From a virus: DNA of 64,000 nt. Positions 56,070-63,966 of the stretch are shown piece after piece (the stretch's first letter is position 1; every line of letters starts with the position of its first letter). A program made the position numbers and the translations under genes. The notes beneath the pieces were generated by a model, which worked only from the letters and a program-made list of their open reading frames with translations, did no database searches and had not been told where the DNA came from. Location: positions 14,692 through 78,691 of IMG/VR virus record IMGVR_UViG_3300025695_000007; one strand, written 5' to 3'.

Positions 56070-56164
56070 TTTCGTTGCTCTTCTCTAGTAGTATATGGGA
56101 ATGCACAATGAGTGCAGGTGTTCTTCAGTATGTGGCCTACGCCACAAGCGATGCACTTAATCAA
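56009..56164 (-). CDS. Small zinc-ribbon protein (51 aa)
   Basis: TTGA overlap with upstream stop; CIAC...CTHC; not in track. Confidence 0.5.
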   Translation of the reverse strand: MIKCIACGVGHILKNTCTHCAFPYTTREEQRKWIQKQEQQPQKPSFKQSES

Positions 56165-56541
56165 AGACCAAGTACCCCAACTAAGTCAGGCTCAAAGTAG
56201 TTTGGACCTTTCATGACCTTGCCCATTTCATTCTTCTGAGCATAACCATCTACGAGCTTTGACATATTGCTTTCATGAACTTCTTCAAAACAGGCGTCCA
56301 GATCGATACCATAAGCATGACCAGTACCATATATAACATAGAGAAGATCAGTAAGTGCATCCGCTACCTCTACAAGATTACGATCATCATGTGCTTCAAT
56401 CAGCTCAGACATTTCTTCCTCAATCAGAGCAATTCGAAGAGCAATAGTATCACTCTCAGGAAAGTGAGGATCTACATGAACTTCTTGATCACACGCTTCC
56501 ATGAAGTCCCCAACTTTCTCAAAATTCGTTACATCAATCAT
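56161..56541 (-). CDS. MazG-like NTP pyrophosphohydrolase
   Basis: LIEEEMSEL, EVADALTDLLYV, VHESNMSK, GKVMKGPNY. Confidence 0.9.
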   Translation of the reverse strand: MIDVTNFEKVGDFMEACDQEVHVDPHFPESDTIALRIALIEEEMSELIEAHDDRNLVEVADALTDLLYVIYGTGHAYGIDLDACFEEVHESNMSKLVDGYAQKNEMGKVMKGPNYFEPDLVGVLGL

Positions 56542-56722
56542 TTTGTTGCCTTTTGCGTTCGCGTATTATCGCTGCTTGTCTTTTCTTGTTGCGCTTGAGG
56601 CAGGGCTTTACATATTGCTGCCTCTCACGATACTCCATCAGTATTTCGTCGTTGTTCATCTTTCGTTTGAACACGCGAAGTGCTGCATCCACGTTTCCAT
56701 TTCTAACTGTTACTCTTGGCAC
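56534..56722 (-). CDS. rpsU: Ribosomal protein bS21
   Basis: VTVRNGNVDAALRVFKRK...ILMEYRERQQYVKP..KR. Confidence 0.9.
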   Translation of the reverse strand: MPRVTVRNGNVDAALRVFKRKMNNDEILMEYRERQQYVKPCLKRNKKRQAAIIRERKRQQND

Positions 56723-57789: not shown

Positions 57790-57987
57790 ATGCCCACAAC
57801 AAACATAGAAATGAGACTGGACATTCTGTACAGAATGATGATGACAGACCTGCACCTGGAGGATCCAGCACTAGTGAAGAGCTATTGCAATCACTGCATG
57901 AGCAAGTGGGATCAACTGACAGACAAGGATAAAGATTTTGTAAACCGTGCGTATGCGTGCGTAGTAAAGAGAGAGAAATATGGATAA
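57790..57987 (+). CDS. Hypothetical protein
   Basis: Overlaps downstream start; competes with 57735-57932 frame. Confidence 0.5.
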   Translation: MPTTNIEMRLDILYRMMMTDLHLEDPALVKSYCNHCMSKWDQLTDKDKDFVNRAYACVVKREKYG

Positions 57988-58228
57988 GAAACTTACAGCA
58001 CTTATACTTACTATGGAAGAGTGTGGAGAACTAACCCAAGCATGCTCGAAAGTAATACGTCGCGGCGGGGACGAAAAGAGTATTAGCGATCTAGCAGATG
58101 AAGCAGGTGATGTACTCTGTCTGATTGAATTACTCGTTAGACTTGGACACCTACGCCAGATTGACTTAGACGAACGAAAGAAAATGAAAAAATTAAAACT
58201 CAAAAGCTGGAGTAATTTGTATGATTAA
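57980..58228 (+). CDS. Short MazG-like protein
   Basis: MEECGELTQACSK...DEAGDV. Confidence 0.75.
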   Translation: MDKKLTALILTMEECGELTQACSKVIRRGGDEKSISDLADEAGDVLCLIELLVRLGHLRQIDLDERKKMKKLKLKSWSNLYD

Positions 58229-59600: not shown

Positions 59601-60017
59601 ATGACAACACATAAATTGTCCATGGCAGACCTACCTAAGTTCTTCTTAGGGTTTGACCGCTTAGAAAATGACTTCTTTGCAAGTACAGTAGATGGAGGTT
59701 ATCCTCGTTATAACGTCGTAAAAGCAGGAGAGACTGACTATAGAGTCGAGATCGCAGTTCCTGGATGGCATAAAGAGGATATTAAAATCTCGCTACATAA
59801 AAATGTACTTAGCGTAAAAGGCACTACAAAGCAGACAGAAAATCCAAACGAAACATACGTTTACAAAGGATTGAGTGGTAAATGTTTTACCCGCAATTTC
59901 AGAGTAGGCGATCATATTAAACTTTCAAAAGCGTATATGAGCCGGGGACTGCTTTGTATCGATCTTCAGGAAGAGGTTCCTGAGGAAGATCGTCCCATTA
60001 CCATAGCGATTAATTAG
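59601..60017 (+). CDS. Small heat shock protein Hsp20/IbpA-like
   Basis: LGFDRL, YPRYNV, EIAVPG, F.R.F, GLL.I.L..VPEE..P..I. Confidence 0.94.
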   Translation: MTTHKLSMADLPKFFLGFDRLENDFFASTVDGGYPRYNVVKAGETDYRVEIAVPGWHKEDIKISLHKNVLSVKGTTKQTENPNETYVYKGLSGKCFTRNFRVGDHIKLSKAYMSRGLLCIDLQEEVPEEDRPITIAIN

Positions 60018-60150: not shown

Positions 60151-60179
60151 GGGGTCGGGAGAAATCTCGACCCTTTTTT
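60151..60179 (+). terminator. Intrinsic terminator
   Basis: GGGTCGGGA-GAAA-TCTCGACCC-TTTTTT. Confidence 0.82.
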
Positions 60180-60193
60180 CTTTGGAGAAAAAT

Positions 60194-61468
60194 ATGATAA
60201 AAAAAGCTATAGCTATAAGCGTGGCGCTAGTAGGGACAGTGGACGCACAAACCTACACTGACGGCGTTGCAGATATTATCAATAACAACTGTGTAGTTTG
60301 TCACCGTGAAGGTGGCATAGGTCCCATGAGCTTTGAGACTTACGAGCAAGTACGTCCCTGGGCTCCTCTCATCTCAATGCGAGTAGCAAATCGAGAAATG
60401 CCTCCGTACGCATATGATCACGGTATCGGCATACAAGACTTACAAGGAGACTGGCGTCTCTCACAAGAAGAAATTGATTCAGTAGTGAATTGGGTCGCAG
60501 CGGGGTCATTATATGGCGATCCTGATAGAATAGTACAAGCACCTGAAATGAAAGATCCAGAAGCATGGAACTTCGAAGCAGACTTCGGCGCACCAGACGC
60601 AATCATTCCTTCAGTAGCTATTGACATTCCTGCAAACGGAAACGATCTGTGGCACAAGCATTTAGTACCAACAGGTCTTACTGAAGATCGATGCATCAAA
60701 GCAGTACAAGTAAAACCACGAGGCGAAGCAAAGGCAGTAGTACACCACGCTAACTCTAGTATTATTACTTCAGAAGGGCGTGAAGGCATGCTCACGGAGT
60801 ACGCTATGGGAAAGTGGGGAGAGATAGTTCCAGAAGGAGTATGTCGAACTATCCCAGCAGACGCACAAGTAAGTTGGGACATTCATATGTTTCCAGGTGG
60901 ACTTGGCGCAATGGCTCCAGGAGCGGTTATCAAAGACAACGTAGTGGAAATTGGACTTTGGTTATATACAGAAGAGGAAAGCGCACAACTGAAATACAAA
61001 CAAGATTTGAGTTTGTATCGCCTTGGAGATCAGGACGATTTAGTAGTCCCACCCAATGGATATGCAATGACACAGGGCTTTCACAGTTTCGATCATCCTG
61101 TACGTTTAGATAGTTTTCAGCCGCATGGTCACTTGCGTATGAATGCAGCGAGCCTTGAGATTTTTTACCCAGAAACTGGTCGCACTCAAGCCATAAGTCA
61201 GATATCTAAGTGGAGCGCTACGTGGCATCATAGTCATTTGTATGCTCCAGAAGTTGCACCTCTCATACCAGCAGGCGCTGTGATTGTACTCAAGCAATGG
61301 TATGACAATACTGCAAACAATCCAAATAATCCTGACCCAGATATGTTTGTAATGGGTGGCTCACGTACAGGAGATGAAATGACTCACGCTTGGCTTGCTA
61401 TCACACACCTAGATGACGAAGGATTTGAGCAATTGAAAGCACAGCGAAGTGCAATGGGAGATGATTAA
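60194..61468 (+). CDS. Exported cytochrome c - copper type II (PHM/DBH-like) monooxygenase fusion, copy 1
   Basis: Signal peptide; CVVCH...MPP; VVHH, DIH, PHGH, DEM copper ligands; GGAG RBS at ATG 60194. Confidence 0.82.
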   Translation: MIKKAIAISVALVGTVDAQTYTDGVADIINNNCVVCHREGGIGPMSFETYEQVRPWAPLISMRVANREMPPYAYDHGIGIQDLQGDWRLSQEEIDSVVNWVAAGSLYGDPDRIVQAPEMKDPEAWNFEADFGAPDAIIPSVAIDIPANGNDLWHKHLVPTGLTEDRCIKAVQVKPRGEAKAVVHHANSSIITSEGREGMLTEYAMGKWGEIVPEGVCRTIPADAQVSWDIHMFPGGLGAMAPGAVIKDNVVEIGLWLYTEEESAQLKYKQDLSLYRLGDQDDLVVPPNGYAMTQGFHSFDHPVRLDSFQPHGHLRMNAASLEIFYPETGRTQAISQISKWSATWHHSHLYAPEVAPLIPAGAVIVLKQWYDNTANNPNNPDPDMFVMGGSRTGDEMTHAWLAITHLDDEGFEQLKAQRSAMGDD

Positions 61469-61629
61469 TGACTAATTCAGTATTAAACATACACGGACTC
61501 AGCAAGGACGGTGCTCAGTGGGTTATTGACACTTTTGGAGAAGCTGCCAAAGAGTCTAACTATCAAACTAATAAAACTATGCAGATGTGGATAGAACAAT
61601 CCCAAGCAGTTTTAGATGAGGAAGAGTGA
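61468..61629 (+). CDS. Small acidic hypothetical protein (53 aa)
   Basis: TAATG and TGATG coupling; not in track. Confidence 0.6.
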   Translation: MTNSVLNIHGLSKDGAQWVIDTFGEAAKESNYQTNKTMQMWIEQSQAVLDEEE

Positions 61630-61775
61630 TGGCAGTTAGTATTATATTTTATGTTCTGTTATTAACACCACCTGTACTGTTTTTAGGATTGACCTACGGC
61701 GATAGAAAAGAAACAGGAAAGTGGTTCTGGCAAAAAGCGAAGTCAGGAGTTAATTCTGGCGCTAAATTTGGATAG
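61629..61775 (+). CDS. Small single-TM protein (48 aa)
   Basis: MAVSIIFYVLLLTPPVLFLGLTY...; coupled start. Confidence 0.58.
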   Translation: MAVSIIFYVLLLTPPVLFLGLTYGDRKETGKWFWQKAKSGVNSGAKFG

Positions 61776-61785
61776 GAGTAGATTA

Positions 61786-62154
61786 ATGCCAACATTAAAA
61801 CAAGCACGAAACGGTTTATGGGGTTCTTTAATTATATTTTTAGGACTTCTTGCATTTCAGTTCGTAGTATTATTAGGAGCAAGAACTTTATACGCACAAG
61901 AGGTAGACCTTAGTTCAGTAGAAATTAAATGGAAAACCTGTGCAGCATGTCACGGCACTAAGGCAGAGGGTAAGCCAGGGTTTCCTAGTTTAAACTGGAT
62001 GGAAGAAGATTACATTGTAGAAGCATTGACTGACTACAAGCAGATGATTAATCGTGGCGACATGAGTGGCATCATGTTTGGACAAGCCGCTACTCTATCA
62101 GATGAAGAGATAGAACTGATGGCGAAATATATCAAGGAGATGATCAATGACTAG
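61786..62154 (+). CDS. Monoheme cytochrome c (c553/c4-like)
   Basis: N-terminal TM/signal; CAACHG, PSL, YK...R, IM..QA..LSDEEI. Confidence 0.92.
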   Translation: MPTLKQARNGLWGSLIIFLGLLAFQFVVLLGARTLYAQEVDLSSVEIKWKTCAACHGTKAEGKPGFPSLNWMEEDYIVEALTDYKQMINRGDMSGIMFGQAATLSDEEIELMAKYIKEMIND

Positions 62155-63376
62155 ATTAAATTCAGCAGCTGCTACTCTCGGTATTATAGTATTGCTGCTC
62201 GGTCTTAGGGCAGAAGCTAGTGAATACGCAGAGAATGTAGCACCCATCTTTGTAGAGCAGTGCCAAAGCTGTCACCGTGAAGGTGGTATAGCACCATGGG
62301 CAATGACCGACTACAGAATGCTTCAAGCGTTTGCGCCTGCAATCAAAGAAGCAATAGTAAATCTAGAGATGCCTCCTGGGCAGATCAATCGTAAGTATGC
62401 AGATGTGATTATTAATCATCGTACACTTAGCGATTATGAGATGCAAACTATTGTATCTTGGATTGATGCCGGTGCACCTGTTGAAGGCGATAGAGATCCT
62501 CTAACAGAAACAGTGTACTCTACTTCAGAGTGGGTACACGGTGAGCCTGATATGATTGTTGAAGTACCTGCACAAGAGATACCTGCAGGCCCATCAGCAA
62601 TACCTTATCGTTATGTCGGTGTTGATTTAGGTCTCACTGAAGATAAGTGGCTACGGGGTTCAGAATATCTACCTTCAGAGCCTACTGTCATGCATCATAT
62701 GCTAAACTCAGTAGCAGTACCTGGCGAGCGCAATGGTAACATCTTGGGCACACAAGGTGCTGGTCAAGAAGAAATGAACTATGCTTCTATCAGTGCCTAT
62801 GTACCTGGAGGCGATCCTGACTTCTATGATGAGAATACTGGGGGACTGTTGCGGGCAGGTAGTAAAGTGAACTTGCAACTACATTACACACCAGATGGAA
62901 CACCTCGAACTGATAAAGCTCGAATTGGTTTGTACTTTCATGATGAAGGGGTAGTACCAGAAGAAAGAATGGCAGGCGACTGTGCTTGTATCTTTCCTGA
63001 CAAGTGGACACCAATTCCACCGTATGATCCTAACTTCATGCAAGAAGCAGATGTTGTTTTAAAGAATGATGTAATGCTGCATACGTTTCTACCTCATATG
63101 CATTTCCGTGGTAAAGCAATGCGAGCAACTGCATTCTATCCAGACGGCACAGAAGAAGAGCTGATTGATATTCCTCGTTATGAGTATGCTTGGCAGCTTT
63201 CATACACATGGAGAGAGCCTAAGTTCTTGCCTGCAGGAACTAGACTACATGTACAAGGATGGTTTGACAACTCAGCAGATAACCCTATGAACCCAGACCC
63301 CAGCAGAGAAGTACCTTGGGGACAGATGTCTGAAGATGAGATGTTTTTTGGAGCATTTACTTGGAAGAACTACTAA
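62147..63376 (+). CDS. Exported cytochrome c - copper type II monooxygenase fusion, copy 2
   Basis: Signal peptide; CQSCH...MPP; VMHH, QLHY, PHMH, DEM. Confidence 0.85.
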   Translation: MTRLNSAAATLGIIVLLLGLRAEASEYAENVAPIFVEQCQSCHREGGIAPWAMTDYRMLQAFAPAIKEAIVNLEMPPGQINRKYADVIINHRTLSDYEMQTIVSWIDAGAPVEGDRDPLTETVYSTSEWVHGEPDMIVEVPAQEIPAGPSAIPYRYVGVDLGLTEDKWLRGSEYLPSEPTVMHHMLNSVAVPGERNGNILGTQGAGQEEMNYASISAYVPGGDPDFYDENTGGLLRAGSKVNLQLHYTPDGTPRTDKARIGLYFHDEGVVPEERMAGDCACIFPDKWTPIPPYDPNFMQEADVVLKNDVMLHTFLPHMHFRGKAMRATAFYPDGTEEELIDIPRYEYAWQLSYTWREPKFLPAGTRLHVQGWFDNSADNPMNPDPSREVPWGQMSEDEMFFGAFTWKNY

Positions 63377-63493: not shown

Positions 63494-63619
63494 ATGATTG
63501 AATTAGATCCAAAACATTTATTTATAGCAATAGTAATATGTGCTTTAGCCGCTGGAATCAGCAGTAAAGTTAAAGCAGGAGTCGAAAGACCAGAGATTAA
63601 GATATGTGGGGAGGAATAA
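63494..63619 (+). CDS. Small hydrophobic protein (41 aa)
   Basis: MIELDPKHLFIAIVICALAAG... Confidence 0.4.
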   Translation: MIELDPKHLFIAIVICALAAGISSKVKAGVERPEIKICGEE

Positions 63620-63966
63620 TAGGCTCCATAGCGGGGCTAGGACAAACTTGGCTAGAGGGCAAAAACAGTAAGATGAAAGCCAAAGCCGAGGCGGAAGCCA
63701 AGGTAATAGTAACAGCGGCACAGAGTAAAGCAGATTGGGAATCAATCATGGCAGCTAACTCTGGGTCTTCGTGGAAAGATGAGTGGCTAACACTACTCTT
63801 CAGTATTCCTATGATATTGTGCTTCTTTCCTCAAACTGTAGAATATGTTCATGCAGGCTTTCAAGCTCTTGAAGAAATGCCAGCATGGTATCAATACACA
63901 CTTAGCGTAATTGTTGCAGCATCATTTGGTGTACGAGCAGCAGTAGGATTTATGGGCAAAAAATGA
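63604..63966 (+). CDS. Putative holin (3TM holin-like)
   Basis: SWKDEW, P.WYQY...ASFGVR; directly before endolysin-like start. Confidence 0.72.
   Translation: MWGGIIGSIAGLGQTWLEGKNSKMKAKAEAEAKVIVTAAQSKADWESIMAANSGSSWKDEWLTLLFSIPMILCFFPQTVEYVHAGFQALEEMPAWYQYTLSVIVAASFGVRAAVGFMGKK

Follow-up and report, generated by a model that had tools for sequence, protein, structure and literature searches.

To our knowledge, the peptidylglycine alpha-hydroxylating monooxygenases (PHM) and dopamine beta-hydroxylases (DBH) that have been studied so far are eukaryotic enzymes that use ascorbate as the reductant. In these enzymes, the reduction of the CuH copper site and the crossing of electrons from there to the CuM site have long been debated. 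The redox auxiliary genes known from marine phages include viral amoC and, in cyanophages, the genes for plastocyanin and PTOX. Here we describe a gene cluster at positions 60194 to 63376 of a 64,000-nucleotide window, which comprises bases 14692 to 78691 of the 78,691-bp IMG/VR virus record IMGVR_UViG_3300025695_000007 (coordinates below are window positions, except where a locus label precedes them). Its open reading frames (ORFs) lie exactly where the initial annotation of this sequence had placed them. The cluster encodes two exported paralogues, A and B, in each of which a heme c domain is joined to a core resembling the two-copper oxygenase core of PHM and DBH, and we conclude, with a probability of about 0.72, that the region is a phage auxiliary cassette for cytochrome-driven hydroxylation. 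On this reading, we class it among the type II copper monooxygenases, as a branch that phages carry and that a cytochrome drives.

Heme and copper motifs of proteins A and B

Proteins A and B are 27% identical over ~398 residues (E = 4e-36), and each begins with a hydrophobic signal sequence that is followed directly by the heme domain. Protein A contains C33-x-x-C36-H37 (CVVCH), M69-P-P, H184-H185, H231, H311-x-H313, and M396, and protein B contains C39-x-x-C42-H43 (CQSCH), M75-P76-P77, H183-H184, H246, H317-x-H319, and M399. These are the features that the initial annotation had listed for two diverged paralogues (a signal peptide, CxxCH, MPP, and the patterns HH...H and HxH...M), and all of them are borne out in both proteins. 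The combination of CxxCH, a distal methionine, and export that characterizes c-type cytochromes is present in the N-terminal domains of A and B and also in the free cytochrome c encoded between them, and we infer that the methionine of M-P-P is the axial heme ligand. In an alignment of 46 family sequences, which has a mean column identity of 27%, all of the B residues named above are invariant, and the equivalent A residues are invariant in a second alignment, of 47 diverse family members. Among viral copies, the motifs are present in 41 of 41 A proteins and 53 of 53 B proteins; for the Met motif, the counts are 40 of 41 and 51 of 53.

Searches of Pfam, NCBIfam, and PHROGs with A and B gave sub-threshold N-terminal cytochrome c matches only. 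The fused heme domains score 17.5 and 12.7 bits, which is below the cut-off, and relatives reach PF13442 at 37 bits. Since neither A nor B has a curated Pfam match, we assign them to the copper monooxygenase superfamily by their family profile together with their fold. Single-sequence phmmer searches of the PDB with A and B returned nothing useful. When A and B were combined with close relatives in a profile, it matched 17,232 clusters (at 50% identity) with E ≤ 1e-3 and 2,719 clusters with E ≤ 1e-30. The profile of the first alignment matches human DBH (PDB 4zel; E = 1.1e-8) and rat PHM (E = 6e-7), and all six crystallographic copper ligands of DBH and PHM align with their counterparts in the family. 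As marks of membership we took, for CuH, a third histidine ~60 to 65 residues after the HH pair and, for CuM, a methionine ~70 to 80 residues after HxH. The HH pair and the third histidine of both A and B align with the CuH ligands of DBH and PHM, and the HxH pair and final methionine of both align with HTH..M314 of PHM. Two relatives, P0273 and P0293, reach the Cu2_monoox_C model PF03712 (25.2 and 25.0 bits, with a cut-off of 23), and some others have weak matches to PF01082. Of the models that the initial annotation named, the copper-domain model PF03712 recognizes relatives of A and B but not A and B themselves, while the cytochrome model recognizes the free cytochrome c.

The core of both proteins consists of two beta-sandwich domains, which is the architecture of the PF01082 plus PF03712 superfamily. 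The AlphaFold model of A has a predicted local distance difference test (pLDDT) score of 88.4 and a predicted template modeling (pTM) score of 0.84, and the model of B has a pLDDT of 84.6 and a pTM of 0.80. Because sequence, that is, the profile match with every ligand aligned, and predicted fold agree for both proteins, the PHM/DBH-like ligand match proposed at the outset is supported.

Many family members are ~580 to 620 residues long and carry an N-terminal AhpC/TSA domain in addition to the cytochrome c domain. Neither A nor B has this N-terminal redoxin domain of ~180 residues. Two complete family units are present in one chain in P0265 (1251 residues), where each unit has its own redoxin domain, and in P0269 (1064 residues), where they are accompanied by EF-hands.

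The gene between A and B, which had been read as a monoheme cytochrome c flanked by the two paralogues, does encode a class I monoheme cytochrome c. Its product matches PF00034 at 34.3 bits, which is well above the cut-off of 21.3, and has an N-terminal signal or anchor. The likely start is the ATG, which has AGGAG 7 nucleotides (nt) before it, and not the alternative TTG. This gene is optional: a copy lies between the two paralogues in 10 of 80 related viral loci, at 59 to 86% identity (these 80 loci, from the 117 IMG/VR contigs described below, are the basis of all neighborhood counts). In five candidate host-type genomes, we found only distant relatives of it, with ≤43% identity.

Phage residence, selection, and gene layout

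The setting of the cluster is clearly that of a phage, as had been claimed. The record is rated 100% complete, has direct terminal repeats of 127 bp, and encodes a large terminase, a head protease/capsid protein, a major tail protein, an SbcC-like nuclease, and a ribonucleotide reductase. The terminase is 48 to 49% identical to those of the T5-like phages Pectobacterium My1 and Serratia Slocum and of Vibrio T5-like phages. The cluster is near the end of the record; however, the order hsp20, A, B, phrog_2524, lysozyme, DenV-like gene is contiguous in the independent related contigs L025, L036, and L037, which rules out an end artifact. No homologue of B was found in 50,697 GenBank phage records by megablast or tblastn, in keeping with the initial view that this is not a standard auxiliary metabolic gene set.

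A survey of viral sequences in IMG/VR, of the kind that the initial annotation had proposed, detected the A-B pair in at least 117 contigs. A is directly upstream of B in all 80 loci wherever enough upstream DNA is present, and the spacing between the two genes ranges from overlap to 682 nt. The loci represent six recurring neighborhood types, together with eight loci that are unclassified or too short. The T5-like type of the window accounts for 12 to 14 loci. Another 23 loci are T4-like and have the genes scaffold, gp23, A, B, tail tube, UvsY, and UvsW, with a gp23 that is 68 to 69% identical to those of Methylophilales phage Melnitz and Pelagibacter phage HTVC008M. The other 43 to 45 loci comprise four further types and the eight unclassified or short ones; one of the four types consists of contigs of 217 to 340 kb, in which the pair is beside a gp15-like tail sheath stabilizer gene. 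A role in oxidative help for lysis, one of those initially suggested, is unlikely, since only in T5-like phages is the pair next to lysis genes; in T4-like phages, it adjoins the genes for gp23 and the tail tube. The other roles suggested initially, modification of a receptor or envelope polymer and nutrient scavenging, are putative.

In 19 of the 80 viral loci, B is directly followed by a canonical pqqA gene, which starts 10 to 150 nt past the B stop codon and encodes a peptide of the pattern MWTKPxY..RLGFE[IV]TMY... No pqqA was found anywhere in the genome of the phage described here. Other genes follow the pair elsewhere. One neighborhood type (L009, L045, and L033) has, after the pair, a gene for an IscA-like Fe-S assembly protein (L009:3140-3514; PF01521, E = 2e-14) and a giant ORF of 2,600 to 2,900 codons. 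In the 217- to 340-kb contigs, it is followed by a gene for a CHASE2 sensor/adenylate-guanylate cyclase (L027:11841-13913; PF05226, E = 1.5e-38; PF00211, E = 2.6e-16), whose product also matches phrog_35576, a family of which the function is not known.

Both genes are under strong purifying selection. The median ratio of nonsynonymous to synonymous substitution rates (dN/dS, pairwise Nei-Gojobori) is 0.085 for viral A and 0.099 for viral B; the median dS of ~1.3 to 1.4 is near saturation, so that these ratios are approximate, yet they are clearly far below 1. The relaxed selection that would have spoken against a functional cluster was not observed. The GC content is 0.43 at the cluster, compared with a phage mean of ~0.40 and 0.48 to 0.60 at loci of cellular homologues, and the fact that the cluster is below the cellular loci fits a long residence in phages. 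Residence in a bona fide phage genome, cellular homologues, and selection are the features of a phage auxiliary gene, and all three are found here.

The two paralogues appear to differ in their histories. In a FastTree phylogeny, viral B proteins (53 rows plus one contig of a metagenome-assembled genome [MAG]) form a single clade with 100% support and a stem of 0.76, which is sister to AhpC-fused cellular proteins. Based on this single, long-stemmed clade and its sister group, we interpret B as an old, virus-specific lineage that has been trimmed of a domain. Viral A proteins, in contrast, are interleaved with cellular A-like genes in the FastTree phylogeny, and a likelihood tree of the A clade has one cellular gene nested within viral A. 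A single viral A clade was not rejected by the approximately unbiased test (P = 0.12). A is far closer to cellular genes than B is, and several numbers and directions of A transfer would be compatible with these trees. Distances between A copies show a moderate correlation with those between B copies (r = 0.44; none of 2,000 permutations gave so high a value), which suggests that A and B are usually inherited together but have also been reshuffled. The A-B heterodimer that had been put forward initially is putative; the evidence for it consists of this correlation and the constant co-occurrence of the two genes. The sole close match in a GTDB genome is a 6,996-bp MAG contig (L003; JALRBG010000283.1) that carries an N-terminally truncated A (241 to 265 codons open) followed directly by an intact B, which belongs to the viral clade. 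The other genes of this contig have no PHROGs match, and it may be a phage fragment that was binned into the MAG.

The features of the locus and of related loci are listed in Table 1. The hairpin comes after hsp20 and 20 nt before the start of gene A, whose ATG is preceded by a GGAG ribosome-binding site. The ATG of s1 overlaps the stop codon of A and has a GGGAG site; the start of B overlaps the end of the cytochrome c gene and has an AAGGAG site. The first of the two small coupled ORFs of the initial annotation, s1, recurs in 4 of the 80 loci with 71 to 85% identity, although it matched no family in scans of Pfam and PHROGs. The second, s2, had neither a family match nor a homologue in any of the 80 loci, and for lack of such recurrence it may not be a gene.

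Table 1. Positions of features in the window and at related viral and cellular loci
Feature	Position	Strand	Description
Hsp20 gene	59601-60017	+	Upstream neighbor, context only; PF00011, E = 3.1e-16
Terminator-like hairpin	60151-60174	+	10-bp stem with 6 G-C pairs, then T-run; TTTTTCTTTG
Gene A	60194-61468	+	424 aa; signal peptide, monoheme cytochrome c domain, PHM/DBH-like two-copper core
Small ORF s1	61468-61629	+	53 aa; translationally coupled to A
Small ORF s2	61626-61775	+	49 aa; one hydrophobic segment; open frame with GAGGA site; doubtful gene
Free cytochrome c gene	61786-62154	+	122 aa from ATG 61786; 128 aa from alternative TTG 61768
Gene B	62147-63376	+	409 aa; signal peptide, monoheme cytochrome c domain, PHM/DBH-like two-copper core
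phrog_2524	63604-63966	+	Downstream neighbor, function not known, context only; E = 2e-36
pqqA examples	L027:11172, L045:11306, L047:11223, L079:11256		Also at 15 other viral loci
Cellular cluster	L111:4049-9196	-	A-like genes and ~310-aa partner
Cellular cluster	L103:7665-14708		A-like genes and ~310-aa partner
Cellular cluster	L107:4300-9930		A-like genes and ~310-aa partner

The cluster had been placed between hsp20 and holin/endolysin genes. The Hsp20 neighbor (family 33), which is also found in related T5-like loci, and the endolysin were both confirmed. The latter lies past the end of the window, at the start of the record (L127:90-536), and is 78% identical to a PF00959 lysozyme, so that the order across the record junction is B, phrog_2524, lysozyme, DenV-like gene. 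A holin was not confirmed; a PHROGs scan near B detected only small membrane-type ORFs and phrog_2524. The small-gene region upstream of hsp20 encodes two separate MazG-like nucleotide pyrophosphohydrolases (56161-56541, minus strand, phrog_671, E = 2e-37; and 57980-58228, plus strand, phrog_4856, E = 5e-17). A phage-encoded gene for ribosomal protein S21 is located at 56534-56722 on the minus strand (phrog_21469, E = 9e-11).

Cellular relatives and probable host lineage

Family matches were found in 38 of 401 sampled GTDB genomes of Pseudomonadales, and five GTDB genomes of this order (G517, G659, G446, G685, and G606; 2.7 to 3.8 Mb) have 13 to 16 matches each. The same five genomes also have 17 to 30 matches each to PF01011, the family of pyrroloquinoline quinone (PQQ) dehydrogenases, so that both groups of periplasmic oxidoreductases are markedly expanded together. 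Two tandem genes of one Pseudomonadales genome share 83% and 75% identity with A, and genes of others share 65 to 70%. The best cellular match of B has 52% identity to it and an AhpC/TSA domain at its N terminus (E = 3e-10). Long-form homologues that are 38 to 39% identical were detected in 3 of 300 sampled genomes of Gammaproteobacteria, a tally that rests partly on two genomes flagged as unpublished, G040 and G142.

The closest cellular relatives of B are located among ordinary metabolic genes, in neighborhoods that are not conserved. Cellular A-like genes usually adjoin a gene for a secreted protein of ~310 residues, which is DUF4198/PKD-like by language-model features and ends in DQCCWTN. 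A Met/His-rich protein of ~400 residues is often encoded in their vicinity as well, and in three cellular loci (e.g., L111 and L107) its gene is directly beside the B-like gene. A-like and B-like genes can be found in one cellular gene cluster (e.g., L111, L107, and L108); in L111, a B-like long form completes the run. Neither the ~310-residue nor the ~400-residue partner has a Pfam match, and no homologue of either was found in any viral locus. Near some cellular copies are genes for TonB-dependent receptors, a major facilitator superfamily transporter, a beta-lactamase-like protein, and an M16 peptidase, which is circumstantial evidence that fits periplasmic processing of imported organic molecules.

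Homologues of the ~310-residue partner are labeled by their sources as Pseudohongiellaceae, Pseudohongiella, "SAR86 cluster," and other marine gammaproteobacterial MAGs. Of the evidence that bears on the host lineage, this taxonomy is the most informative, and it suggests that the hosts are marine Pseudomonadales. It agrees with the gammaproteobacterial hosts (Pectobacterium, Serratia, Klebsiella, Vibrio, and Salmonella) of the T5-like phages that were matched.

Proposed electron supply, rival readings, and comparison with known systems

Taken together, the heme domains, the copper ligands, and the export signals suggest how the cassette could work. A and B would be exported via Sec, and their heme would be attached by the Ccm system of the host. 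The heme domain would then take electrons from the periplasmic pool of cytochrome c, including the cytochrome c of the phage itself, and the electrons of this pool would ultimately come from the bc1 complex or from periplasmic dehydrogenases. From the heme, electrons would pass to CuH, in place of those that the animal enzymes obtain from ascorbate, and CuM, with its His2Met ligands, would activate O2 and hydroxylate a C-H bond of a periplasmic substrate other than peptidyl-glycine. Electron supply through c-type cytochromes, which the initial annotation had traced to the host respiratory chain, is the presumed route. During infection, the phage may in this way add to, or redirect, a capacity for periplasmic oxidation that the host lineage already uses heavily.

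A more far-reaching version of this scheme is also conceivable. It is that A and B are self-contained, cytochrome-c-driven periplasmic C-H hydroxylases that need neither ascorbate nor NAD(P)H; that many lineages of ocean phages spread them to reprogram the oxidation of dissolved organic matter by marine Pseudomonadales; that they work with PQQ dehydrogenases in some phages, which would explain the adjacent pqqA; and that A and B act on different substrates or in successive steps. We regard this version as tentative and, taken as a whole, unlikely.

Several points weigh against the interpretation of the region as a hydroxylation cassette. PF01082 and PF03712 have no match in A or B even at E ≤ 1. 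In the literature searched, we found no biochemical evidence for any heme-fused family member, and we found no reports of heme-fused PHM-like proteins or of such phage genes. Strictly defined, PHM (EC 1.14.17.3) does not include A and B: in the profile alignment, the substrate anchors R240, N316, and Y318 of PHM face nonconserved hydrophobic positions, and in A and B, L/F-x-P precedes HxH, while DEM is followed by F-F-G-A or T-H-A-W. Since these substrate-anchoring residues are not conserved, the chemistry could differ. The peroxiredoxin-type fusion in many cellular relatives suits a peroxide- or oxygen-reducing role equally well. Finally, the host assignment is indirect.

In the main rival explanation, proteins of PHM fold serve as a periplasmic electron sink or detoxifier. 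In this case, O2 or H2O2 would be reduced with cytochrome c electrons, as by an oxidase or peroxidase, without hydroxylation of any organic molecule, and the phage would benefit late in infection by controlling redox state or reactive oxygen. The N-terminal AhpC/TSA domain of B's nearest cellular relatives and of many family members is consistent with such a role, as are the lack of conservation of the PHM substrate-binding residues and the apparent use of a cytochrome as electron donor. However, the full His3 and His2Met ligand set of coupled monooxygenases is invariant, and the phage versions have lost the redoxin domain. In addition, the many divergent matches in single cellular genomes argue for many substrates rather than for one universal reaction, as far as can be judged from such counts. 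We consider this explanation improbable, although it is the strongest of the alternatives.

Somewhat less probable is a coupling to PQQ, in which the copper enzymes would hydroxylate C-H bonds and PQQ-dependent periplasmic dehydrogenases would oxidize the resulting alcohols and return the electrons via cytochrome c. A similar coupling has been proposed between particulate methane monooxygenase and methanol dehydrogenase. The pqqA genes directly after B in other viral loci and the abundance of PF01011 matches in the genomes that are rich in the family are in line with it. Family members are also located ≤2 kb from a PF01011 gene at two loci each in G685 and G606, and the relative P0410 (1181 residues) is a fusion of one family unit to a PQQ_2-type beta-propeller. 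On the other hand, we estimate from the gene counts that ~0.45 such adjacencies per genome would be expected by chance, and the observed number is not clearly above this; PF13360 propellers often do not bind PQQ; and the present phage genome has no pqqA. For these reasons, a link to PQQ is optional at best and is not essential here.

The remaining idea, that the cluster is host DNA misassembled onto a phage or a decaying passenger under no selection, could draw on a GC content slightly above the phage mean and on the position near the record end, but it is refuted by the contiguous gene order in three other contigs, the direct terminal repeats, the recurrence of the pair in at least 117 viral contigs, the low dN/dS with intact ligand motifs, and the higher GC content of cellular homologue loci.

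The bacterial family to which A and B belong, with more than 17,000 clusters at 50% identity in which heme c is wired to a PHM/DBH-type core, offers a natural system with a built-in electron donor. At least two unrelated types of phage, T5-like and T4-like, carry the pair, and some carry their own cytochrome c or pqqA as well. This points to an unrecognized way for ocean viruses to alter the periplasmic oxidative metabolism of marine Pseudomonadales. Once its substrate is identified, a new reaction would join those of carbon or nutrient cycling that viruses drive.

Compared with PHM (PDB 1PHM, 1OPM, and 1SDW) and DBH (PDB 4ZEL), the A/B family has CuH (HH..H) and CuM (HxH..M) ligands that align one to one and with similar spacing, while the sequence identity is only 11 to 16%. 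The presumed point of electron entry differs: A and B have an N-terminal c-type heme domain, whereas PHM uses soluble ascorbate and DBH has a DOMON domain. The three substrate anchors of PHM are absent from the A/B family, and A and B are periplasmic proteins of bacteria or phages, whereas PHM and DBH are found in animal secretory granules. A and B belong to the uncharacterized bacterial family that combines cytochrome c with a Cu2_monoox-like core, and they have its invariant ligand set; in sources, the proteins of this family are labeled "mono/diheme cytochrome c family protein," "cytochrome c551/c552," or "hypothetical protein." The phage copies are a short form of this family, B having lost the AhpC/TSA domain of its closest cellular relatives, and the viral loci lack the ~310- and ~400-residue partner proteins of the cellular loci. 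Like viral amoC and the plastocyanin and PTOX genes of cyanophages, the A-B pair represents host-derived redox or metalloenzyme genes kept under purifying selection; unlike those genes, it encodes proteins of another fold with other cofactors.

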